64,000 nucleotides of DNA. It comes from a virus. This document shows positions 16,859 through 38,406 of the stretch, piece by piece. Under the pieces are notes generated by a model, which was not told where the DNA came from, did not search any database, and saw nothing but the letters and a program-made list of their open reading frames with translations. Position numbers and translations under genes: made by a program. The stretch is taken from the IMG/VR virus record IMGVR_UViG_3300009703_001822. The stretch is one strand, 5' to 3'. Positions within the stretch are counted from its first letter, which is position 1. Each line of letters begins with the position of its first letter.

Positions 16859-18124
16859 ATGTATCTTTCAGAAGAACTACAAAAGAAGTGGCAACCAGTT
16901 CTTGAGCACGGTGACTTACCTGAGATTCAGGACCCGTACAAAAAAGCTGTTACCACAGTAGTACTCGAAAACCAAGAGAAGGCTCTTCGTGAAGAAAAAG
17001 AAGCTCTTTTCGAGGCTACACATGCTAACCAAACAGGTGCAGGCGTTGATAACTATGATCCTATTTTAATATCATTAGTTAGACGTGCTTTACCTAACCT
17101 TATGGCTTACGATGTTTGCGGAGTACAACCAATGTCTGGACCAACAGGTCTAATCTTCGCTATGAAGTCACACTATACTAGTCAAACTGGTACAGAGGCT
17201 TTATTTAACGAAGCAGACACTGATTTCTCAGGTGCAGGAACACATGCTGGAGCTAATCCAGTAGATGGAACTTACACTACAGGAACAGGTGTATCTACAA
17301 GCACTGCAGAAGGCTTTGGAGACAGCACTACACTAAATGAAATGGCATTCTCGATTGAGAAGACAACTGTTACTGCTAAATCAAGAGCATTGAAAGCAGA
17401 ATATACAGTTGAACTAGCTCAAGACTTGAAAGCTGTTCATGGTTTAGATGCAGAATCCGAGCTAAGTAATATCCTTTCACAGGAAATACTTGCAGAGATC
17501 AACCGTGAGGTAATTAGAACTATTTACAAAGTGGCAAAAACAGGCTCAGCCTCAACTGCTACAGCTGGAACATTTGATTTAGATGTTGACAGTAATGGTA
17601 GATGGTCAGTAGAAAGATTTAAAGGTCTTTTATTCAATATCGAGCGTGACGCTAATGTTATAGCACAAGACACCAGGCGTGGAAAAGGTAACTTCATCAT
17701 CTGTTCATCAGATGTTGCAAGTGCTCTTTCAATGTCAGGCGTACTTGACTATGCACCAGCATTATCAACTAACTTAAATGTTGATGACACAGGTAATACA
17801 TTCGCTGGTGTATTAAACGGTCGTTATAGAGTTTACATAGACCCTTATTCAGCTAACACAGGAGCTGCTAGTCAGTTCTATGTAGTTGGTTATAAAGGAA
17901 CTAGCGCATATGACGCAGGTCTTTTCTACTGTCCGTATGTACCGCTCCAAATGGTTAGGGCTATTGACCCTAGCACATTCCAACCTAAGATTGGTTTCAA
18001 AACTAGGTATGGCATGATCGCTAATCCATTTGTAATGCAGTCAGACGGAACTACAGATGCAGACACATTTACTGCAGACCGTAACCAGTACTACAGATCA
18101 GTCAAAGTTACAAACTTAATGTAA
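16859..18124 (+). CDS. gp23: Major capsid protein gp23
   Basis: GVQPMSGPTGLIFAM, SRALKAEYT.ELAQDLKAVHGLDAE, FQPKIGFKTRYG. Confidence 0.98.
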   Translation: MYLSEELQKKWQPVLEHGDLPEIQDPYKKAVTTVVLENQEKALREEKEALFEATHANQTGAGVDNYDPILISLVRRALPNLMAYDVCGVQPMSGPTGLIFAMKSHYTSQTGTEALFNEADTDFSGAGTHAGANPVDGTYTTGTGVSTSTAEGFGDSTTLNEMAFSIEKTTVTAKSRALKAEYTVELAQDLKAVHGLDAESELSNILSQEILAEINREVIRTIYKVAKTGSASTATAGTFDLDVDSNGRWSVERFKGLLFNIERDANVIAQDTRRGKGNFIICSSDVASALSMSGVLDYAPALSTNLNVDDTGNTFAGVLNGRYRVYIDPYSANTGAASQFYVVGYKGTSAYDAGLFYCPYVPLQMVRAIDPSTFQPKIGFKTRYGMIANPFVMQSDGTTDADTFTADRNQYYRSVKVTNLM

Positions 18125-18153
18125 TTTAGATCTAATTCTAGAAATAGAATTCT

Positions 18154-18184
18154 AAAAGGGCTTCAGATTTGGAGCCCTTTTTTT
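18154..18184 (+). terminator. Intrinsic terminator after gp23
   Basis: AAAAGGGCTTC-agattt-GGAGCCCTTTTTTT. Confidence 0.85.
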
Positions 18185-18204
18185 ATCTTGAAAACCTATT
18201 TTTG

Positions 18205-18212
18205 TATAAATA
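18205..18212 (+). promoter_or_regulatory. T4 late promoter driving the riboswitch/peptide cassette
   Basis: TATAAATA about 6 nt upstream of the RNA motif start. Confidence 0.75.
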
Positions 18213-18217
18213 ATTAT

Positions 18218-18333
18218 ATCGTTCATGTGTAAGTTCATTAACATACACACGGAAGTAGACCTGAAAACCTCTCACATTCGTGGGGTTAGCTAGTAGGCAG
18301 TCAGCCGAACGAGACCGAAAGTCGAAGGAACGC
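18218..18333 (+). ncRNA. Glutamine riboswitch-like RNA (glnA motif class) with expanded P3
   Basis: P1 CGTTC(18220)/GAACG(18328); P2 TGTGTA(18226)/TACACA(18244); CGGAAGTA junction/E-loop strand (18250-57); P3 GAC/GTC followed by GAAG. Confidence 0.8.
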
Positions 18334-18368
18334 ATTCTTTTAACCGTAAAAAAGTATAAGGAGGCGAT

Positions 18369-18527
18369 ATGACTTATAGAGGCATAACATACACCAAAGA
18401 AACTTTGATTACAGAAGCGAGGAAAGCTCGTGCTGGCATTTACAGAGGTGTAAAACATGGTCCTATGAAGACTGAGTCCAAGGGTATGCAACATGGCATA
18501 TACCGTGGCATCAAATGGTCTAATTAA
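18369..18527 (+). CDS. 52-aa triple-YRG peptide (DUF4278-like)
   Basis: Not in the ORF track. AAGGAGG RBS; MTYRGITYTKETLITEARKARAGIYRGVKHGPMKTESKGMQHGIYRGIKWSN*. Confidence 0.8.
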   Translation: MTYRGITYTKETLITEARKARAGIYRGVKHGPMKTESKGMQHGIYRGIKWSN

Positions 18528-18538
18528 TTAGGAACAGG

Positions 18539-18569
18539 AAAAGGGGCGATCTCGAGTCGCCCCTTTTTT
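18539..18569 (+). terminator. Intrinsic terminator after the YRG peptide
   Basis: AAAAGGGGCGA-tctcgag-TCGCCCCTTTTTT. Confidence 0.85.
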
Positions 18570-18586
18570 ATCACATAAATACAGAT

Positions 18587-19621
18587 ATGAAGTTCCATAT
18601 ATTATATAATAATGAAAAGATTATACCAAACATAAGTCAGAACATAAGAAAATGGCCAGTTAGTTATGATATAGATAATGCAGAAGTGGTTCTTACATTT
18701 AAACTTAATACATACTCTGTTACAAAAAAATTTGCTAATCTATGGGAAACTACTCACTCTAATGCACTAAGACAAAATGGAGGTAGACAGTTTGAACAAC
18801 AGCAGCAGGTGTTTACACGACCTACACCTGAAAGAATCATGCGTTCACGAGAATTATATAATAAAACATTACAAGAAATTATTCCTTTTGTAAGTAGACA
18901 AAGTGCAGCAATAATTGTAGGTGGAGATTTAAATGTAGAAATATCTACAAAGCCTTATTTAGAAAAGTTTAATAGGGCTCATGAATTGTTTGAAAAGGAA
19001 TGTGCTAGTGTTATGCCTACAGGTAATAAGTATGAAGGTTCATGGGAAAAATGGCAAATAATACATAGAAATAGATTACAGTTATTGAATTCCATAATAC
19101 ATTTTAATGAAGAAGAAATAAGACCTAATCCTTCGCCTAAATATACAACTATAATATCTACTTCATATAACAGCGATCATATGGGAGACAATAACGATTC
19201 ATTTTTAATGGCAGATCATTTTTATAGGGACATGGTACCTTCAGATTATAGAGCCTTTTCCTTTGGTAAAGCAGTGCCTGGTACTTTATATTTAGACTTT
19301 GCTACTTTAGGTAAATGTTTAACAGAAATAGCAGGTACTAATGATGTAAGATTGTTAAGAACAGAAGGACCTTCTCAACAAAAAACAATATGGCCTTGGG
19401 TAAGATATTCCTGGGAGCCACCTCAACCACTTAGAGTTAAACAATATAATAAATGGATAATAAAAAACAAAGTAGGAAAGATACTAGACTTATCTAACCC
19501 TATGTACAAACCTGGTTTACACCCTTTAGGTGTATGCACATCTCATGATTTTACAAATGCTAAACAATTTGAGGACTTTATACAAGATAGAGCTGTAGTA
19601 GGAACAGTACTAGAAAGGTAA
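18587..19621 (+). CDS. Hypothetical protein, paralogue of 60240-61010
   Basis: Long ORF after CATAAATA; shares LN..IH..E and PG.LY.....GK...EIA motifs with the paralogue. Confidence 0.6.
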   Translation: MKFHILYNNEKIIPNISQNIRKWPVSYDIDNAEVVLTFKLNTYSVTKKFANLWETTHSNALRQNGGRQFEQQQQVFTRPTPERIMRSRELYNKTLQEIIPFVSRQSAAIIVGGDLNVEISTKPYLEKFNRAHELFEKECASVMPTGNKYEGSWEKWQIIHRNRLQLLNSIIHFNEEEIRPNPSPKYTTIISTSYNSDHMGDNNDSFLMADHFYRDMVPSDYRAFSFGKAVPGTLYLDFATLGKCLTEIAGTNDVRLLRTEGPSQQKTIWPWVRYSWEPPQPLRVKQYNKWIIKNKVGKILDLSNPMYKPGLHPLGVCTSHDFTNAKQFEDFIQDRAVVGTVLER

Positions 19622-19681: not shown

Positions 19682-20116
19682 ATGGCATATAGTAAAAAGG
19701 TAGTAGATAGATTTAATGATGTATTGAATAATCCACAACAGCATGGGGTAGGACGATTTGATCCTAATGACCCTAATGTTGCTACAGGAATGACTGGAGC
19801 ACCAGCATGTGGAGATGTTATGAAACTAGATCTAAAAGTAAATCCTGATACAGATGTTATAGAAGATGTTAAGTTTAAAACATATGGTTGTGGTTCAGCT
19901 ATTGCTAGTTCAACTATGTTCGTTGAAATGCTTAAAGGTATTACAATGAAACAAGCCTTAGAAATTAAGGATAAAGATATAGCAGCAGCACTTGAATTAC
20001 CACCTATTAAGTTACATTGCTCTGTACTAGCAGAAGATAGTATTAAAAGAGCATTGAAAGATTGGGACGAAAAGAAAGCACACCGTGAACACAATGGAGC
20101 GCCAGTTGCAACCTAG
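19682..20116 (+). CDS. iscU: Fe-S cluster scaffold IscU
   Basis: GAPACGDVMKL, FKTYGCGSAIASS, LELPPIKLHCSVLAED. Confidence 0.95.
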   Translation: MAYSKKVVDRFNDVLNNPQQHGVGRFDPNDPNVATGMTGAPACGDVMKLDLKVNPDTDVIEDVKFKTYGCGSAIASSTMFVEMLKGITMKQALEIKDKDIAAALELPPIKLHCSVLAEDSIKRALKDWDEKKAHREHNGAPVAT

Positions 20117-20480
20117 TACTTTTGATCCTAACAATCTTATTGCTACATCGAGACCGCCTTTGGTTGACTTTTCACCTGAGGCTCTCGAACAAGTCTTAGA
20201 TAGGTTAGATAAGAAAGGACACAAAGGAATATTCTTTGGATTAACAGGCGGTGGCTGTGCAGGTTTTTCGTATGTATTTAATTATGCTGATGGACCAAAT
20301 CAGGAAAGTGATATAGAAATAGACTTTGGTAAATTTAAAGTCTGGATGGATGTAATGTCAGAAATGTACTTAACAGGTACGGTTATATCATGGAAAGTAG
20401 AAGGTTTGAATGAGGGTTTTGAATTCGTAAATCCTGCAGAACAATCTGCTTGTGGTTGTGGTGTAAGCGTATCATTTTAG
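20085..20480 (+). CDS. iscA: A-type Fe-S carrier (IscA/ErpA/HesB)
   Basis: GGCAGFSY and NP...CGCG.S motifs. Confidence 0.9.
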   Translation: MNTMERQLQPSTFDPNNLIATSRPPLVDFSPEALEQVLDRLDKKGHKGIFFGLTGGGCAGFSYVFNYADGPNQESDIEIDFGKFKVWMDVMSEMYLTGTVISWKVEGLNEGFEFVNPAEQSACGCGVSVSF

Positions 20481-20489
20481 GAGTATATT

Positions 20490-20648
20490 ATGGCAAAATC
20501 ATGGAGTGGAAAACTCACACATACTGGTGTTAAAAAATCGACATCACAAGGACAAGGCGGTAGAGGAAGAAAAGTAAAAATTTCTACTTCTACGATGAAT
20601 AAAAATAAAAAACGATCGTATAAGAGATATAGAGGACAAGGTAAATGA
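20490..20648 (+). CDS. 52-aa highly basic peptide ending YRGQGK
   Basis: Not in the ORF track. AGGAG RBS; MAKSWSGKLTHTGVKKSTSQGQGGRGRKVKISTSTMNKNKKRSYKRYRGQGK*; ATGA overlap with gp3. Confidence 0.7.
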   Translation: MAKSWSGKLTHTGVKKSTSQGQGGRGRKVKISTSTMNKNKKRSYKRYRGQGK

Positions 20649-23592: not shown

Positions 23593-24198
23593 ATGGCAAA
23601 AAGACGTGACCCAAATTCGGCTCACTATATAAACAACAAGGAGTTCCTTGTGGCAATGACTGAATATAGGGAGTTAAGATTAGAAGCAGAAGAGAGTGGT
23701 GAGGATAGACCACGAGTAACCAACTATATAGGAGAGTGCTTTGTTAAAATAGCAAATCACTTAGCTTATAAATCCAATTTCGTAAATTATACATTTAGAG
23801 ATGAAATGATTTTAGACGGTATTGAAAATTGTCTTACATATATGGACAACTTTGATCCAGCAAAATCTAAAAATCCATTTGCATACTTTACACAAATTAC
23901 ATACTACGCATTCATTAGGCGTATTCAAAAAGAAAAAAGACAAATGGAGACTAAGTTCAAATATATTAAGAGCTTAGACATAGATCAAATTTTGGAACAG
24001 AGTGCAGACGGAAGTGAACACTCTAATGATTACCTTAGTTATATGAGAGGTATCATTGAACAGGCAGAGGCAGATAACGCAGCTGCTGATAAAGCTAATG
24101 AAGGTAAGAAAGTTCATAAGCGTAGACCAAAATACTTAGACGAAAAAATTAAGGCAGAAGAGGCAGAAAAGGCCAAAAAAGGTAAACAAGACTCTTGA
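23593..24198 (+). CDS. gp55: Late-transcription sigma factor gp55
   Basis: HYINNKEF, NFVNYTFRDEMILDGIEN, NPFAYFTQI.YYAF.RRI.KEK. Confidence 0.95.
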   Translation: MAKRRDPNSAHYINNKEFLVAMTEYRELRLEAEESGEDRPRVTNYIGECFVKIANHLAYKSNFVNYTFRDEMILDGIENCLTYMDNFDPAKSKNPFAYFTQITYYAFIRRIQKEKRQMETKFKYIKSLDIDQILEQSADGSEHSNDYLSYMRGIIEQAEADNAAADKANEGKKVHKRRPKYLDEKIKAEEAEKAKKGKQDS

Positions 24199-24232: not shown

Positions 24233-25114
24233 ATGGCAAAGTTAAGATATAGCGAAGCATTTTATAGCGTACAAGGTGAGGGTAGATTCGTAGGTGTTCC
24301 TAGTGTCTTCCTAAGAGTCTTTGGTTGCAATTTTGAATGTAGAGGTTTTGGACAGGAACGAGGCAATATTATTCCTGTAGAAGAAATGCCCTATATGACA
24401 GACGAGCGTGCTGAAAAAACACATGAACTGGCATACAAATCCATAGAAGAACTTCCTGTTACACCTATTGGGTGTGATAGTTCTGCCTCATGGGCTATGA
24501 AATACAAACATCTACAACTAACAAAGACAACAGACGAGGTGTTTGAACATATTGTAAGTTTACTTCCTAATGGTAAATTTAATGAGAGTGAAGACATACA
24601 TCTTGTTATTACAGGTGGTGAACCTTTACTAGGTTGGCAAAGAGTATGGCCTGAATTATTAGAAATGTGTAAAGAAATAGGTTTGAAAAATGTAACCTAT
24701 GAAACAAATGGCACACAGAATTTACAACAACAATTTATTGACTACCTAAATGGAGATGGTAAAGACATACATATTACATGGTCCACATCTCCTAAATTAT
24801 CTATCTCAGGTGAAGAACAATTTGACGCACTTATACCTGAGGCACTATTAGATATGAATATGGTAAGCAATAGTCATCTATATAATAAATTTGTCGTCAG
24901 AGATATAGAAGACTTTAAAGAAGTAGATATCTTCGTGGAGGCTTACAAAGAGGCAGGTGTAAAACTAGATGCCATTTATTGTATGCCTGAAGGAGCTACA
25001 TTAGAACAACAACATTTGACGGCAAAAGGTGTTGCAGACGCTTGTATGCAGACAGGTTACAAGTATAGCCCTAGATTACATATAGATTTGTTTGGCAATG
25101 CCTGGGGAACTTAA
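24233..25114 (+). CDS. queE: 7-carboxy-7-deazaguanine synthase (radical SAM)
   Basis: E.FYSVQGEG...VFLR..GCN, TGGEP, ETNG, SPK, SPRLH. Confidence 0.92.
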   Translation: MAKLRYSEAFYSVQGEGRFVGVPSVFLRVFGCNFECRGFGQERGNIIPVEEMPYMTDERAEKTHELAYKSIEELPVTPIGCDSSASWAMKYKHLQLTKTTDEVFEHIVSLLPNGKFNESEDIHLVITGGEPLLGWQRVWPELLEMCKEIGLKNVTYETNGTQNLQQQFIDYLNGDGKDIHITWSTSPKLSISGEEQFDALIPEALLDMNMVSNSHLYNKFVVRDIEDFKEVDIFVEAYKEAGVKLDAIYCMPEGATLEQQHLTAKGVADACMQTGYKYSPRLHIDLFGNAWGT

Positions 25115-25116
25115 TT

Positions 25117-25317
25117 ATGAAATGGTGGAAAATACTATGGCAACAAAATCCTGAAAAGGATATTGATACATACAAAGAACCTGATCCAGATGAAGTAACA
25201 ATAGACAATGCTTACAAGACAAGATGGATTTGGTATCATACTATATTAGCAGTAGAATTATTATTGGTTGTTATTATACAACTTTGTATATTACTATTAT
25301 TGGCGGTAAAACTTTGA
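25117..25317 (+). CDS. Small membrane protein
   Basis: C-terminal hydrophobic helix. Confidence 0.5.
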   Translation: MKWWKILWQQNPEKDIDTYKEPDPDEVTIDNAYKTRWIWYHTILAVELLLVVIIQLCILLLLAVKL

Positions 25318-25568
25318 GTGTCAATTTAGTAAAATTAAATAATGGAGAACTCGTGTACGGTGAGAAAGAGGAAATAAAAGAATACTGTGAACAAAAGGAA
25401 ACAGATGTAGAAACTTGGTATAACTATGTTGCTCCTAGTACGGTACAATCTCATTTCACATACATAGGTAAAAGAATGTGTGATCCTTATTCAATAGCAA
25501 GACCTATTTACCAAAGAGATGAGAATGGAGAGTATGTAGGTCTTACGGAGTTTAAAGAAAAATGGTAG
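25314..25568 (+). CDS. Hypothetical protein
   Basis: Probable TTG start overlapping the upstream stop; fills the operon gap. Confidence 0.45.
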   Translation: MSVNLVKLNNGELVYGEKEEIKEYCEQKETDVETWYNYVAPSTVQSHFTYIGKRMCDPYSIARPIYQRDENGEYVGLTEFKEKW

Positions 25569-25987
25569 GTGACGCAATAAAACTTTATGTATCATGGGAT
25601 GATGTTAATGCCATGGTCTTCAAATTATACAAACAATTAAAGAATGAGAACATAGACAAAGTGGTAGGTATATCACGAGGTGGATTGATACCAGGTGTTA
25701 TGCTTTCTCATTGGCTAGATGCTGGCTTTGAACCTCTTGAATGGCAAACCAGAGATGGAGAGTTTCAGGATAAGATTAAAGCTAACGGGTTCAACAAAAA
25801 TTTAAGAGGCACCATTTTTGTTGATGATATTTGTGATAGTGCCTTAACAATTAATCAGATCAAGGAAATTATTCCAAAGAGCCGGTGGGCTGTATTACAC
25901 CAAAAAGCTGATATAGAGCTTGACTTTGTAGCCGAAAGACTGCATAATAACGACAAAAGATGGATAATTTACCCTTGGGAGGAGTAA
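25562..25987 (+). CDS. Type I phosphoribosyltransferase (Gpt-like)
   Basis: GISRGG, IFVDDICDS PRPP motif, WIIYPWE. Confidence 0.85.
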   Translation: MVGDAIKLYVSWDDVNAMVFKLYKQLKNENIDKVVGISRGGLIPGVMLSHWLDAGFEPLEWQTRDGEFQDKIKANGFNKNLRGTIFVDDICDSALTINQIKEIIPKSRWAVLHQKADIELDFVAERLHNNDKRWIIYPWEE

Positions 25988-26005
25988 TCTCATACAGGAG
26001 AAAAT

Positions 26006-26686
26006 ATGATTAGTAAAGAGATAATAGCAAGACTAAAGGACAAAGGCAAACGCTTTTATGCTGGTGATAATATATCAGAAGTCCTAGAGCCTGGCGACAA
26101 GGAGAAACTAATTGACGAACTACAAGGCAAGTTCTATGAAGTTCTAAAGTCATTAGTTATTGATACAGAAAACGATCCTAACAGTATGGACACACCTAGG
26201 CGATTAGCAAAGATGTATGTTAATGAAATTATGTCAGGTAGGTATAACACTATGCCTAACCCTAATGCTTTTCCTAATTATGTGGAAGGCGGATATGAAG
26301 GCATGTTGGTAGTGAGAAGTGAATTAAAAAGTATGTGTTCACATCATCATCAACCTGTTACAGGTATTGCATACATAGGAATAATTGCTGGTGATAAACT
26401 ATTAGGTTTATCTAAATACACAAGGATAGCACAATGGTGTGCTAGACGAGGTACATTACAAGAAGAACTTAATGTAATGATAGCAGATGAAATCCAGAGG
26501 CAATGTGAAACAGAACATGTAGGAGTCTATATACAGGCAACACATGGTTGTTGCGAGAATAGAGGCATAATGGCTAACAGTTCTTTAACACAGACTACTG
26601 TTTTACGAGGTGGTTTTAAGAAAGAAGACTTGAAGAAAGAATTCTTTGATAATATAACACAACAACAAATGGTATCACCTAGATAA
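26006..26686 (+). CDS. folE: GTP cyclohydrolase I
   Basis: TPRRLAKMY, SMCSHH, GLSKY.R, LQEE, HGC...RG. Confidence 0.95.
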   Translation: MISKEIIARLKDKGKRFYAGDNISEVLEPGDKEKLIDELQGKFYEVLKSLVIDTENDPNSMDTPRRLAKMYVNEIMSGRYNTMPNPNAFPNYVEGGYEGMLVVRSELKSMCSHHHQPVTGIAYIGIIAGDKLLGLSKYTRIAQWCARRGTLQEELNVMIADEIQRQCETEHVGVYIQATHGCCENRGIMANSSLTQTTVLRGGFKKEDLKKEFFDNITQQQMVSPR

Positions 26687-27195
26687 TGGATATTAATAGT
26701 AAACATATAGTAGTAGATTTAGAAACTTTAAGTACACATTCTAATGCGTGTATAGTTTCTATTGGAGCGTGTCTTGTAGAAAATTTAGAAATTACAGACA
26801 CATTTTATATTAATGTAAACGGAGTCGAAGGACGACAGGCAGGATTACATGTTGAAACGGAAACGATTAAGTGGTGGGAAGAACAACCTAAAGAGGCAAG
26901 AGAGGCATGGCAACGAGATCCACAACCTCTCAAAGATTCTTTGGAGTCTTTCAGTAAGTATTATGGCATTGATTCTATTCCTATTTGGGGTTATGGCGCT
27001 AACTTTGATGTAGTCATATTAGAAAATGCTTACAGAGCTATGGGTATGCAAATACCTTGGAAGTTCTGGGACATATACTGTTTAAGAACTCTAATGAATG
27101 TATTAGATAGGAGACTCCCTAAGGCAAATAATCATAATGCTTTGGACGATGCAACAGCCCAAGCAAATATGTTAATTGAAATATTGAAAACATGA
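26686..27195 (+). CDS. DEDDh 3'-5' exonuclease (DexA/DUF5051-like)
   Basis: VDLETL, W..GANFD..IL, HNALDDA. Confidence 0.85.
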   Translation: MDINSKHIVVDLETLSTHSNACIVSIGACLVENLEITDTFYINVNGVEGRQAGLHVETETIKWWEEQPKEAREAWQRDPQPLKDSLESFSKYYGIDSIPIWGYGANFDVVILENAYRAMGMQIPWKFWDIYCLRTLMNVLDRRLPKANNHNALDDATAQANMLIEILKT

Positions 27196-29376: not shown

Positions 29377-30424
29377 TTTAGAATATGTCGAGACACGATA
29401 CACAGCACAATGGAAAACAGAATTTCCTCAGCAAATAGCAGATCAAACAGGACAAGATATAACAGTTATTGAAGGTCCAGAAGATATTGCAGCGTGTACA
29501 ACACCAGGTGCCTTCTTAAACTTTGCAGGCACAAACATATACAAATCAGAACAAGTAAAACTTCTTGCAGAATATTTTAACAACAATGAGATTAAGAACG
29601 GAGATCATTTTGTCTTTGCAGACGCTTGGCATCCAGGTATTCTTAATCTTAAATACATGTTAGATTTATTTCAGATAGATGCAACAATACATGCACTATG
29701 GCATGCAGGCAGTTATGATCCTCAGGATTTTTTAGGTAGATTAATAGGAAATAAACCTTGGGTTAGGCATACAGAACTAGCTTTCTTTGATGCTATAGAT
29801 AAAAACTATTTTGCTAGTAACTTTCATATTGAATTATTTGTTAATACAATGTTTCCTGGCAATAATGATCCTGAATATTTAAATAGTAAAATTGTTAGAA
29901 CAGGTTGGCCTATGGAATACTTAGGCAACTATATACAACCTCAAAGATTAGTGAAAGAAGATATTATTTTGTTTCCTCACAGGGACGCACCCGAGAAACA
30001 ATTAAATATATTTCAAGACTTGGCAAAAGAATTGCCACAGTATAAATGGATTAATTGTAATGAATTGAATCTTACGAAACCAGAATACAATTCATTATTG
30101 GAACAATCTAAAATGGTTTTCTCAGCAAACTTACAAGAGACATTAGGTATTAGCTGTTATGAAATACTAATGGCAGGTGGTATTCCACTTGTACCTAACA
30201 GACTTTCTTATGTAGAAATGTATGAGGATATATTTAAGTATCCTTCTATTTGTACATTAGACTGGAAAGGCTATCAGGATAATAAACAAATGCTTATAGG
30301 AAAGATAGAAACAATGATGGAAAATTTCCAAGCAGAAGAAATACAAACGGCAATTAAGAATAATAGAACAATGTTGCAGGAGGAATACTTTACGGCAACA
30401 AACTTATATCAGGAGTTAAGATGA
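29360..30424 (+). CDS. GT-B glycosyltransferase
   Basis: LFPHR.APEKQ, ETLGIS..E...G.IP.VP (GT4-like ExxG..xxE), WHAG. Confidence 0.75.
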   Translation: MIYLIDLEYVETRYTAQWKTEFPQQIADQTGQDITVIEGPEDIAACTTPGAFLNFAGTNIYKSEQVKLLAEYFNNNEIKNGDHFVFADAWHPGILNLKYMLDLFQIDATIHALWHAGSYDPQDFLGRLIGNKPWVRHTELAFFDAIDKNYFASNFHIELFVNTMFPGNNDPEYLNSKIVRTGWPMEYLGNYIQPQRLVKEDIILFPHRDAPEKQLNIFQDLAKELPQYKWINCNELNLTKPEYNSLLEQSKMVFSANLQETLGISCYEILMAGGIPLVPNRLSYVEMYEDIFKYPSICTLDWKGYQDNKQMLIGKIETMMENFQAEEIQTAIKNNRTMLQEEYFTATNLYQELR

Positions 30425-30876
30425 GAGATTACAAATACTACTCAACAAAAACCTATGGACATGAAGAAGGTCTTTCATGTATGTTTAGACAACCTTTAGC
30501 AACGCATAGTCATTGTAGTTTACTACATGGTTACGCTTTGTCTTTTAGTTTCAAGTTTGGTTGTAACCACCTTGACGATAAAAATTGGGTAGTTGATTTT
30601 GGAGATTTAAAAGACTTAAAGGCATGGTTAAAAGATTCTTTTGATCACAAACATGCAGTGGCTAAAGACGATCCTGAACTACAAGAGTTTTTATTAATAG
30701 AACAAAAAGGATTATCAGAAGTAAGAGTAATGAACGGAGTAGGATGTGAAAAGTTTGCAGAACAAGCTTTCCATTTTGCTAATGATTTAGTAAGCAAAAA
30801 AAGTAATGGTAGATGTTATTGCGTATCATGTGAAGTTCGAGAACACGGAGCTAACAGCGCAATATACGAGGGCTAA
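30421..30876 (+). CDS. queD: 6-carboxy-tetrahydropterin synthase (variant)
   Basis: HC.LLHGY, VVDFGDLK, FDHK, CEKFA, EVRE...NSA.Y. Confidence 0.85.
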   Translation: MRDYKYYSTKTYGHEEGLSCMFRQPLATHSHCSLLHGYALSFSFKFGCNHLDDKNWVVDFGDLKDLKAWLKDSFDHKHAVAKDDPELQEFLLIEQKGLSEVRVMNGVGCEKFAEQAFHFANDLVSKKSNGRCYCVSCEVREHGANSAIYEG

Positions 30877-33845: not shown

Positions 33846-34131
33846 AGGAAGTAAGCGTAGACCTGGAAAAGGATATGCAGATGGTTGGGATAGAATTTTT
33901 AAAAGGAAAGATATGATTACAATATATGGAAAACCAAGATGTCCTTTTTGTGATAGAGCAAAAGCATTATGTGAACAAAAAGGATTGGATTACGAATACA
34001 AAATGTTAGATGCAGATTATACTGCTGAGGAACTGTTTGAAAAAGTTCCTAATGCTAGAACATTTCCACAGATTTTTATCAATGATGAGCCTATAGGAGG
34101 CTATACAGACTTGGAGAAATTACATGGCTGA
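33832..34131 (+). CDS. Glutaredoxin (internal ATG 33913) with an in-frame basic N-terminal peptide
   Basis: CPFC, TFPQIFI...IGGY; second RBS AAGGA before 33913. Confidence 0.88.
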   Translation: MVAGKGSKRRPGKGYADGWDRIFKRKDMITIYGKPRCPFCDRAKALCEQKGLDYEYKMLDADYTAEELFEKVPNARTFPQIFINDEPIGGYTDLEKLHG

Positions 34132-34471
34132 TTTTACAGGTACAGGATATATTCCTTTACCATCTAGTCTAAACATAAAAGACAGTCCTATCCATGGACA
34201 AGGTCTTTTTGCTAAGACAGATATAAATTCAGATACTGAACTAGGAGAGTCCCATGTATTTCTTATGCAAGACTGGGACGGAGAAGAGTTCAAAAGAAAA
34301 GAATGGTTGCGTACTGCTTTAGGTGCATTTATAAATCATAGTAATACACCAAACTGTTCTGTAGAAATAAGATATAATGTAGGAGCACTTATTACATTAC
34401 AAGAAATACAAGCAGGAGATGAAATTACTGTGACATACGATGAAGAGGCATTTAAAGAATTAGGACTATGA
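34124..34471 (+). CDS. SET-domain protein 1
   Basis: SPIHGQGLFA, FINHSNTPNC, IQAGDEITVTY. Confidence 0.85.
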   Translation: MADFTGTGYIPLPSSLNIKDSPIHGQGLFAKTDINSDTELGESHVFLMQDWDGEEFKRKEWLRTALGAFINHSNTPNCSVEIRYNVGALITLQEIQAGDEITVTYDEEAFKELGL

Positions 34472-34818
34472 GTTTTGATAAAGACACTTATCGTCCTTTA
34501 CCAAAAGGTTTAACGATAAAAGAATCTAAAATAGATGGATTAGGATTACATGCTTCTATACCTCATAGTGCAGGTACAAAGTTTGGCGAGACACATGTAT
34601 TAGTACATAGTAGAGATAGACACGAGTGGGTAAGAACACCCTTAGGAGGTTTTATAAATCATAGTAATAATCCTAATTGTTTTATAACAACAGAAGCAGG
34701 TGATAGAACATTATATGCTATAAAACCTATTAAAAAAGGAGATGAGCTAACAGTCTTTTATAGGTTCAAAGGTTATGATGGAATAATAAATAGTGACATA
34801 CAACCAGATGTAGGATAA
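34468..34818 (+). CDS. SET-domain protein 2
   Basis: SKIDGLGLHA, FINHSNNPNC, IKKGDELTVFY. Confidence 0.85.
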   Translation: MSFDKDTYRPLPKGLTIKESKIDGLGLHASIPHSAGTKFGETHVLVHSRDRHEWVRTPLGGFINHSNNPNCFITTEAGDRTLYAIKPIKKGDELTVFYRFKGYDGIINSDIQPDVG

Positions 34819-36858: not shown

Positions 36859-38406
36859 GTGAAATTTAATATGAAACGGAAGTATGTCGTAATACTAGGC
36901 ATACTTTTTTTATCTTTGATGGCCACGGAAGCAGTAGGAGAAGAGATAGAAGAAATAATAGTAGTAGGAGCTAATGAAACATTTGCTTCATCACAACCAG
37001 AGTATGATAATTCAGTACTAGAAGCGGTAAATGTTTTTAGTGTATATCAGGCTGGGGGACGAGGAGGTTTTGCAGCAGTTTCTAGCAATGGAACAGATGT
37101 AAAACATACAGCAGTTTATAGAAACGGAATACCAGTAAACGATCCAGGAGGTGGTTGGTTTGATTTTGGAACTGAGCTGCCTACCTTCCAAGACTTTACT
37201 ATCATATCAGGATCTAATAGTGTATTGTTCGGCAGTTCAGCAATGGCAGGAACAGTACTTATGGAGGACACATTCTCCCCACACTTTTTTACTAAAGTAG
37301 GCAGTAATAGGTATTTAATATCTGGTGGTAATGAATATGTACAATTATCATCTTACAAAGGTTCCGATGGCTCTGCACGAACAGACAACAATGAGAAAGA
37401 TTGGTTTGAAAATACAACACTAAAAACTAATTACCAGGCAGGTGATTGGAAATTTGTATCTGTATATCAGGATTATACTTATGATTATGACAACTGTTGG
37501 TTTGGAGTTGACGGTAATGATTGTGTACAAGAGGGTGAGAAAGTTGATATGTCAATTAGAAATAGTTGGCTCACAGTAGGCTATGGACAAAATGATATTG
37601 AACATAATACAGGTTGGGAAGCTAAAAGCAAAAGATATTTTGTAGATGCTAATGAAGAAATTTTACCTGGATTAATTGTAGGTGCACAAGCACACAGACA
37701 AGAGTATAATGAATATTGGTATCAGCATTATGCTACCTATGTAAATTATTCTACAGAAAACCATAGCATTGGTTGGAGAGTAGAAAACGACGATCATGTA
37801 ATTAGATATGGTTATGAGAAAGATCAATTTAGATTTTCAGTAGGTAACAGTATTAGAATGCCTAATCTATATGAAAGGTATGGTGATGATTGGGTTGCAG
37901 CTAATCCAGATATAAAAGCAGAAAAGGGTAAAGGTATTACAATAGGATATGGTTTCTTTTCAGCATTTTATTATGACTTCTCAGAAAGTATAGATTTTGA
38001 TATGAACACTTATGGTTATGTCAACTCAGGAGGATATGAATCCAAAGGAATTAGTTTTCAAAGGCATTATCTATATGATGTAGGTGCTTTTCATATATCA
38101 ACTTCATATACTGATACAGATCAAATTAGAGCTGCCAAATACCAAACAAAAGTATCTTGGTTCAGTACAATACAAGGCTGGGACTATCTGATATCATATG
38201 TAGGACAATACGACAGAGGTAATGACTTTGACGGAACACCTATTGATGATGTATCAACCTTTGATTTTAATATAGGATACTATCCAAAGCCAGGATTGCG
38301 TTTTGCAGTCGAGATTAGGGACATTTTGAACAGGAAATTCGAGATTTTACCCTATTATGGCGCTGGTGGAAGGGAAATAAATCTCACCTTACACCTAAGT
38401 TATTGA
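36859..38406 (+). CDS. Compact TonB-dependent receptor (BtuB-like)
   Basis: Signal peptide, EEIIVVG TonB-box-like, NGIPVND and S.LFGS.AMAG plug motifs, R.PNLYE.Y, NPD.KAEK, C-terminal GREINLTLHLSY beta-signal. Confidence 0.8.
   Translation: MKFNMKRKYVVILGILFLSLMATEAVGEEIEEIIVVGANETFASSQPEYDNSVLEAVNVFSVYQAGGRGGFAAVSSNGTDVKHTAVYRNGIPVNDPGGGWFDFGTELPTFQDFTIISGSNSVLFGSSAMAGTVLMEDTFSPHFFTKVGSNRYLISGGNEYVQLSSYKGSDGSARTDNNEKDWFENTTLKTNYQAGDWKFVSVYQDYTYDYDNCWFGVDGNDCVQEGEKVDMSIRNSWLTVGYGQNDIEHNTGWEAKSKRYFVDANEEILPGLIVGAQAHRQEYNEYWYQHYATYVNYSTENHSIGWRVENDDHVIRYGYEKDQFRFSVGNSIRMPNLYERYGDDWVAANPDIKAEKGKGITIGYGFFSAFYYDFSESIDFDMNTYGYVNSGGYESKGISFQRHYLYDVGAFHISTSYTDTDQIRAAKYQTKVSWFSTIQGWDYLISYVGQYDRGNDFDGTPIDDVSTFDFNIGYYPKPGLRFAVEIRDILNRKFEILPYYGAGGREINLTLHLSY

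Follow-up and report, generated by a model that had tools for sequence, protein, structure and literature searches.

The locus described here places a candidate metabolite-sensing RNA and a very small peptide gene directly behind the major capsid gene of a virus. It lies at positions 18,154-18,569 of IMG/VR virus record IMGVR_UViG_3300009703_001822, of which one strand of 64,000 nucleotides (nt) was analysed (the window; positions refer to it, and features within it are on the plus strand unless stated otherwise). The gp23 major capsid gene (16859-18124; Pfam Gp23, E 4e-143) stands directly upstream of the cassette and has its own intrinsic terminator (18154-18188), in which a terminator scan found a 12-base-pair stem (hairpin 18154-18181) followed by a U run (-16.7 kcal/mol, z -3.9). 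Beyond it lie a T4-type late promoter box TATAAATA (18205-18212), a type 1 glutamine riboswitch aptamer, or glnA RNA (18218-18336), the Shine-Dalgarno (SD) sequence AAGGAGG (18358-18364) four bases ahead of the ATG at 18369, a 52-residue open reading frame (ORF) with three YRG motifs (18369-18527), and an intrinsic terminator belonging to the cassette itself (18537-18569; -21.1 kcal/mol, z -4.5, equalled by 0 of 200 shuffles).

Taking all parts of the explanation jointly, we regard it as probable that a marine T4-like phage has here a late transcription unit complete in itself, with a terminator on each side. Transcription would begin from a gp55-type late promoter, its first base being that of a type 1 glutamine riboswitch, and the phage copy would amount to a host-type nitrogen-status effector placed under a late promoter. 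An earlier note on this DNA, made from the letters alone, had listed the same elements in the same order, and every one of them lies in the window where it was placed. Its structural reading stands, and the role that it gave the peptide in tuning host glutamine synthetase does not; it overlooked both the structured nature of a 58-nt "loop" domain and the existence of this cassette type in SAR86.

In an Rfam cmscan of the 64-kb window, RF01739 was the sole family to exceed its gathering score (46.3 bits at 18218-18336, where 35 are required; E 6e-7), while the Downstream-peptide model RF01704 gave no match there; the earlier assignment to the glnA class of glutamine riboswitches is thus upheld by its covariance model. 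The match spans the full model (positions 1-53 of 53), with 58 nt taken by the program as an insertion in the P3 loop. CGTTC (18220-18224) pairs with GAACG (18328-18332) to form P1, and TGTGTA (18226-18231) pairs with TACACA (18244-18249) in P2, which occupies 18226-18249 overall. The junction strand at 18250-18257 reads CGGAAGTA = CGGAAGUA, and the return strand GAAG lies at 18324-18327. All type 1 hallmarks are present, namely P1, P2, P3, the junction ACGGAAGUA and return strand CGAAGGAACGC that make up the E-loop strands, and then the 3' C. Across 83 relatives, compensatory changes were found in both P2 and P3. The aptamer sits in a 5' leader, with its 3' end 32 nt ahead of the ATG and a covarying, SD-sequestering hairpin abutting P1. 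From these features the aptamer presumably senses glutamine.

The 58 nt that the covariance model treats as loop are a conserved, structured and covarying domain inside P3 (P3 together with the inserted three-way domain, 18258-18323). GAC (18258-18260) pairs with GUC (18321-18323) in the outer P3, and the insertion comprises, in order, AAAACC (18264-18269), hairpin H1 (18270-18285), strand J2 (18286-18295, ending AGUA), hairpin H2 (18296-18306) and strand J3 (18307-18318), which reads GAACGAGACCGA. The same architecture runs through the whole variant, as an extended P3 capped by a three-way junction of AAAACC, H1, a strand ending AGC-N-AGUA, H2 and the J3 strand. When IMG/VR was scanned for the two conserved aptamer strands lying 50-80 nt apart, at least 119 loci were returned, and those among the matches listed fall into two classes: true tandem aptamers, and the P3-insertion variant as in the window.

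Covariation was assessed on 75 distinct insertion-domain sequences, phage and bacterial. RNAalifold recovered H1 and H2 from this set, and at eight tested H1/H2 pairs 99.2% of cells were paired, against 74% in shuffles. Double-sided changes occupied 122 cells against 25.5 in shuffles (0 of 500 shuffles as high), and sliding the partner by 1-3 columns brought pairing down to 37-66%. With explicit segmentation, pairs 3-6 of H1 alternate among U-A, C-G, A-U and G-C, and pairs 1-2 of H2 among C-G, G-C, A-U and U-A; the basal U-G and C-G pairs of H1 are invariant. The outer P3 helix varies complementarily in length and sequence. The J2 and J3 strands also covary, GCGAGUA accompanying GAAAGAGA and GCUAAGUA accompanying GAACAGAGA, and the AGUA/GAA pair flanking H2 presumably resembles a loop-E module like that of the aptamer core. 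A degenerate tandem aptamer was considered as the reason for the long RF01739 match and was rejected, since the true tandems in other loci look different. The insertion has a history in the literature: 12-13 ocean-metagenome sequences of this variant are already in the glnA.sto alignment of Weinberg et al. 2010 (PMC2864571, Additional file 4), where the insertion was left unaligned and the start of the YRG ORF is visible, and the variant is not discussed in the main text.

The 5' strand of P1, CGUUC (18220-18224), is also complementary to GAACG at 18307-18311 in the insertion strand. The unconstrained minimum-energy fold uses this decoy pairing, which variants with GAAAG at that place would lose. 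The P3 insertion could be a second functional module, either a decoy partner of P1 or a second input, rather than a passive scaffold, and it may be involved in switching.

The promoter ties this RNA to the phage's late programme. There are 19 TATAAATA boxes in the window against 10.1 expected, a number that no shuffle attained; 17 of the 19 are on the plus strand, and 12 of those 17 lie 19-62 nt ahead of an ORF start, including those of gp22, gp23 and iscU. The box at 18205 is followed by a 157-nt leader, which the riboswitch occupies. In T4 the late box lies at -13 to -6 relative to the transcription start, and applying this spacing to the box at 18205-18212 places the predicted start at about 18218, where the Rfam match begins. 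In at least 11 different related phage variants a TAAATA box stands 7-9 nt ahead of P1, and the SAR86 copies have sigma-70 signals instead; judged by these promoter signals, the phage cassette is rewired for late phage transcription. The window also holds a candidate trans-acting partner for the late promoter, a gp55-like late sigma factor gene at 23593-24198 (59% identity to Melnitz gp55 over 152 residues, E 2e-50, tblastn), while no gp33 homologue was found in the window with Melnitz gp33 as query. The earlier proposal of gp55-dependent late transcription therefore holds at the level of sequence.

How the aptamer would act on translation can be read from the expression platform (18331-18366). 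In the leader fold, the last two bases of P1, the linchpin C18333 and the anti-SD run UUCUUUU (together 18331-18341) can pair with the SD region AAGGAGGCG (18358-18366). A hairpin running from the C after P1 into the SD is found in related short-platform phage leaders and in all tandem-type phage leaders, and its base shows compensatory changes in relatives (CAUC/GAUG, CACC/GGUG, CACU/AGUG and CAAUC/GAUUG). In partition-function calculations over 18216-18400, the mean unpaired probability of the SD was 0.12 unconstrained and 0.41-0.44 with P1 and P3 enforced. There is also precedent: in the gifB leader the C after P1 makes a ligand-dependent long-range pair while its neighbours mask the ribosome-binding site, and glutamine-induced translation has been demonstrated for one type 1 and one type 2 leader (Klaehn et al. 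2018, PMC6212724). Because a covarying SD hairpin starts at the linchpin C, and in view of the folding and the gifB precedent, a translational ON switch like that of Synechocystis gifB is favoured. At low glutamine, the two 3' bases of P1, the linchpin C and the U-rich anti-SD run would pair with the SD, so that translation is blocked. At high glutamine, the folded aptamer would capture P1 and the linchpin C, the sequestering hairpin would weaken, and the triple-YRG peptide would be translated. Both the ON direction and a role in nitrogen metabolism are what we infer from these lines of evidence.

Several considerations weigh against this reading of the switch. The anti-SD run can also pair with GAAGGAA, an aptamer strand that resembles an SD, and this could turn the logic round; tertiary structure lies outside the thermodynamic model; and ligand binding and switching are predictions from sequence and folding. 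The resulting alternative is an OFF switch, in which GAAGGAA pairs with the anti-SD and leaves the SD free when glutamine is absent, and the aptamer reclaims GAAGGAA when glutamine is present, so that the anti-SD closes the SD. The GAAGGAA:UUCUUUU hairpin is indeed the minimum-energy form of the short leader (-6.8 kcal/mol) and about as stable as the SD-sequestering hairpin (-6.1 kcal/mol), and in SAR86 simple aptamers are found ahead of glnA and glnII as well, genes that glutamine could sensibly repress. However, enforcing the aptamer raises the accessibility of the SD in the full-leader ensemble, the first base of the covarying hairpin is precisely the linchpin C, and the homologous design that has been tested, in gifB/DUF4278 leaders, is glutamine-induced (PMC6212724). 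An OFF switch is therefore possible and, in our judgement, improbable.

We next consider the product. The 52-residue ORF is, on the evidence of its substitutions and relatives, a real gene, because substitutions are biased to third positions, the YRG codons vary synonymously, the YRG motifs are invariant and the family matches DUF4278. Compared with its closest relative, an IMG/VR locus with 85% amino acid identity, the ORF differs at 4, 3 and 14 sites at codon positions 1, 2 and 3, and among 87 distinct ORFs of the family several synonymous codons are used for the Arg and Gly that never vary in YRG. The three YRG motifs, about 20 residues apart, contain the only invariant columns among 44 aligned members. 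The earlier note had placed the peptide among the DUF4278/YRG peptides, and the profile comparison supports this: the peptide itself matches DUF4278 (PF14105) marginally, with 26.3 bits against a cut-off of 25.3 and the YRG motif present, and 44 of 44 aligned family members match (best E 4.6e-9). Its residues 1-28 align to profile positions 3-31 of 57, that is, to the N-terminal part, and no further domain is present. The peptide is basic, with 11 Lys/Arg against 3 Glu. In tblastn against 50,697 phage records it had no match even at E 1, the query being too short to speak on distant relatives. A 103-residue ORF on the minus strand (18183-18494) was rejected as a gene; conservation there is explained by RNA covariation and by the codon-position bias of the plus strand. 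Elsewhere in the window (20490-20648), after an IscA/HesB-type gene, there is another 52-residue ORF, very basic and rich in Gly, Lys and Arg, which has KRYRGQGK at its C terminus and no Pfam match.

The cellular counterparts of the cassette were found almost only in SAR86. An exact-pattern scan of one genome per species over 185,579 prokaryote species located the P3-insertion variant at 48 loci: 42 labelled SAR86, 5 in metagenome-assembled genomes of Gammaproteobacteria, and 1 on a contig binned as Flavobacteriales. That last contig (NZWA01000048.1, 24.9 kb) has a phage-type CTAAATA box and a short platform and is probably a phage fragment binned by mistake. Complete triple-YRG ORFs of 52-55 residues, about 50% identical to the window's peptide, were given by 44 of the 48 loci. 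At the SAR86 loci the promoter is sigma-70-like (TTGnnn, about 17 nt, TATAAT), and the platform exceeds the phage's by about 30 nt and holds an extra hairpin; the aptamer is of the same insertion type. amtB lies within 120-340 nt of the cassette, co-directional or convergent, in 16 of the 48 loci, and glnK-amtB about 2.3 kb away in 12 further ones, making 28 of 48 in total.

Use of the aptamer in this group extends beyond the cassette. RF01739 matches were obtained in 72 of 121 SAR86-order genomes, up to six in a genome, many of them simple or tandem aptamers scoring 60-71 bits; those inspected precede glnA, glnII, a gene for a 198-residue porin-like protein, or a 43-residue basic peptide. In five cassette-carrying SAR86 genomes (1.2-1.3 Mb), GlnD and GlnE were not found, both being found in control genomes, and glutamine synthetase gave GlnII-type matches only. 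SAR86 may sense its nitrogen status mainly through the glutamine riboswitch. In the literature the glutamine riboswitch has been stated to be exclusive to cyanobacteria (Klaehn et al. 2018, PMC6212724), and its occurrence in SAR86 has received a passing mention (PMC12379486).

As to what the peptide does, inhibition of glutamine synthetase is no more likely than a part in ammonium uptake or PII signalling, given that glnK-amtB is adjacent, that the three YRG units are evenly spaced and that GlnD and GlnE are lacking in the SAR86 genomes. GlnK carries a YRG motif in its T-loop, the Arg47 of which plugs AmtB. One possibility, which we consider doubtful, is that the peptide imitates this loop of PII/GlnK and that its three units act on a trimeric PII target such as AmtB, so that uptake is shut at high glutamine; on the SAR86 side this would replace the missing GlnD-based glutamine sensing. 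The invariance of the three spaced motifs and of nothing else, the proximity of the cassette to glnK-amtB in three different arrangements at the 28 loci, and the GlnD/GlnE result all point in this direction. Set against them, the likeness is one of a three-residue motif, gene neighbourhood alone is weak evidence, and the peptide-family profile found nothing meaningful among PDB sequences and no PII match. No action of DUF4278 peptides on Amt is known in cyanobacteria. A complex prediction with two copies of SAR86 AmtB and the neighbouring YRG peptide gave a median score of 0.27 against a mark of 0.32, a value that speaks neither for binding nor against it. The full form of this scheme, in which the peptide is a three-pronged T-loop mimic on an AmtB-like trimer, SAR86 relies on RNA-based glutamine sensing, and the phage copy shuts ammonium uptake or assimilation late in infection when glutamine is ample, is speculative and we think it unlikely.

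It is likewise unlikely that the peptide is an inactivating factor of the IF17 type that binds and inhibits host glutamine synthetase, as the earlier note had suggested. DUF4278 is the N-terminal domain of IF17, and the pairing of riboswitch and peptide is the same as for gifB; some SAR86-order genomes, moreover, do have a type I glnA behind a riboswitch of its own, which qualifies the GlnII argument. It is the IF7-like C-terminal part of IF17 (GifB), however, that is crucial for glutamine synthetase binding (Klaehn et al., PMC6212724). The phage peptide matches the N-terminal DUF4278 part alone; the IF7-like region was not found in it, and 52 residues leave no room for it. The five searched SAR86 genomes, in addition, have the GlnII type only and not the type I enzyme targeted by IF7 and IF17. 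The proposed tuning of host synthetase is therefore not borne out.

The phage itself belongs to the marine T4-like viruses. By tblastn, the window's gp23 is 71% identical to that of Melnitz, 69% to HTVC008M, 67% to Mosig, 65% to S-SKS1 and about 62% to other cyanomyoviruses, and a megablast of 16859-19621 against the 50,697 phage records gave no match. In a gp23 tree the window falls in a well-supported clade (99/98) with uncultured, cassette-bearing contigs, beside the Melnitz/pelagimyophage group and outside the cyanophage clade. Insertion-type cassettes lie 100-150 nt downstream of gp23 in at least 25 IMG/VR T4-like loci, the gp23 of which is 59-79% identical to that of the window, and tandem-aptamer cassettes occupy the same post-gp23 site in other contigs.

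Further observations were made on these tandem loci. At 23 loci in other marine T4-like contigs, late-promoter boxes are followed by simple glutamine aptamers in tandem and then by small basic peptides of other families. One of these peptides begins MTKYQ and ends ITDNPFYP, others are similar to those of Mosig and Melnitz, and there are triple-YRG ones too. The same SD hairpin from the C after P1 is common to all of these loci, and several stand directly after gp23.

SAR86 is our best guess for the host, and we hold it with modest confidence, because among cellular genomes this cassette type is essentially confined to that group. A number of points count against the assignment. It rests only on the shared cassette type, and both Melnitz, which infects OM43, and Mosig, which infects SAR11, have glutamine riboswitches although OM43 has none (PMC9004378). 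The window's IscU is 57-58% identical to SAR86 IscU, which is uninformative for the host, and its TonB-plug protein had no match in the five SAR86 genomes. T4-like gp23 contigs in 4 of 266 SAR86-order assemblies are without the cassette, and two of them group with S-SKS1. On these contigs gp23 is 69-74% identical to the window's and is followed by no riboswitch.

An ordinary cyanophage cassette with Synechococcus or Prochlorococcus as host is very improbable: glutamine riboswitches have been reported in T4-like cyanophages (PMC9964418) and cyanophage gp23 sequences still share 61-65% identity with that of the window, but the P3-insertion variant was found in no cyanobacterial species genome of the 185,579-species scan, RF01739 gave no match beside gp23 in six records of cyanomyovirus type (five cultured cyanomyoviruses and the marine virus AG-345-F15, derived from a single cell), the window's gp23 lies outside the cyanophage clade, and no photosynthesis family was found among 56 non-structural ORFs scanned against Pfam, which are all but a few of those at 20.6-63.3 kb. 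The earlier remark that the window shows no cyanophage markers was thus a fair one, gp23 being nearest to Melnitz, HTVC008M and Mosig.

The rest of the window encodes T4-like head, replication and recombination genes, together with IscU, an IscA/HesB-type protein, FolE, a PTPS/QueD-like protein, radical-SAM proteins, glutaredoxin, two SET proteins, peptide deformylase, a ClpP-like protease, a TonB-plug protein, a CobS-like ATPase, enoyl-CoA hydratase, peroxiredoxin and Hsp20. The auxiliary set at 19682-20480, 24233-27195, 30421-30876, 34124-34818 and 36859-38406 is unusual for a T4-like phage, comprising the Fe-S proteins IscU and IscA/HesB-type, FolE, the PTPS/QueD-like and radical-SAM proteins, two adjacent SET-domain proteins and a 515-residue protein in which a TonB-receptor plug is the only domain. 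The FolE, PTPS/QueD-like and radical-SAM genes possibly represent a 7-deazaguanine pathway.

The significance of the cassette lies in several directions. Glutamine riboswitches are usually described as cyanobacterial, and this cassette points to a distinct form, with an extended P3 and a YRG peptide, that belongs to SAR86, a group of heterotrophs ranking among the most abundant in the surface ocean; in many uncultured T4-like phages the cassette is found at a fixed post-capsid site. It offers a sequence-based clue to the host of phages for which no host is in culture, and it suggests that in SAR86 an RNA takes over from GlnD and GlnE the reading of nitrogen status. It also provides a compact, testable case of a virus that would gate a late protein on a host metabolite, and finding the target of the peptide would inform the many orphan YRG peptides of Prochlorococcus as well. 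Phage glutamine riboswitches have been published, and the insertion variant was present in the 2010 glnA alignment; what is distinctive here is the structured P3 domain, the late-promoter rewiring, the fixed position behind gp23, and an association with SAR86 instead of cyanobacteria.

Comparison with known glutamine-riboswitch systems places the cassette among them. The gifB (IF17) leader of Synechocystis sp. PCC 6803 (PMC6212724) is likewise an RF01739 aptamer in the 5' leader of a DUF4278 gene, the bases directly following P1 on its 3' side are able to pair with the ribosome-binding site, and it works as a glutamine-induced translational ON switch. Unlike gifB, the phage RNA has a conserved three-way domain of about 60 nt in P3 and a T4-type late box in place of an NtcA-controlled promoter; its product is a 52-residue triple-YRG peptide without the synthetase-binding C-terminal part of IF17, and its carrier is a phage. 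The type 2 riboswitch (Downstream-peptide motif, RF01704) and the yfr6 YRG peptides of Prochlorococcus and marine Synechococcus share with it a glutamine-sensing leader and a short YRG/DUF4278 peptide (PMC2864571, PMC6212724), but there a pseudoknot replaces P1, the system is cyanobacterial and there is no P3 domain, whereas the window matches RF01739 only.

The riboswitches of Melnitz and Mosig (Buchholz et al. 2022, PMC9004378) come from the same gp23 lineage (67-71% identity) and score 52.8 and 50.0 bits with RF01739; they differ in that each phage has one simple aptamer without the P3 insertion, elsewhere in the genome and ahead of a non-YRG peptide. These riboswitches were assigned to control of ssrA, and the downstream peptide was not mentioned (Buchholz et al. 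2022, PMC9004378). In Mosig (MT647606.1; positions 1329-1554 of our extract L005, minus strand) we find a late-promoter-like CATAAATA box, the aptamer, an AAGGAG SD and the 51-residue basic hypothetical protein Mosig_00116, and in Melnitz (MZ577097.1, 46398-46567; 1501-1670 of extract L004) the aptamer lies directly ahead of an unannotated small basic ORF of about 32 residues with an SD. By this arrangement, gating of a peptide appears to fit both phages better than control of transfer-messenger RNA. The chromosomal SAR86 cassettes, finally, belong to this P3-insertion variant too: the invariant strands AAAACC, AGC-AGUA and GAACGAGACCGA recur in them, and their triple-YRG peptides are homologous. 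They differ from the phage copy in context: the SAR86 form has a sigma-70-like promoter and a longer platform and often stands beside glnK-amtB, whereas the phage form has a late promoter and a minimal SD hairpin and follows gp23.

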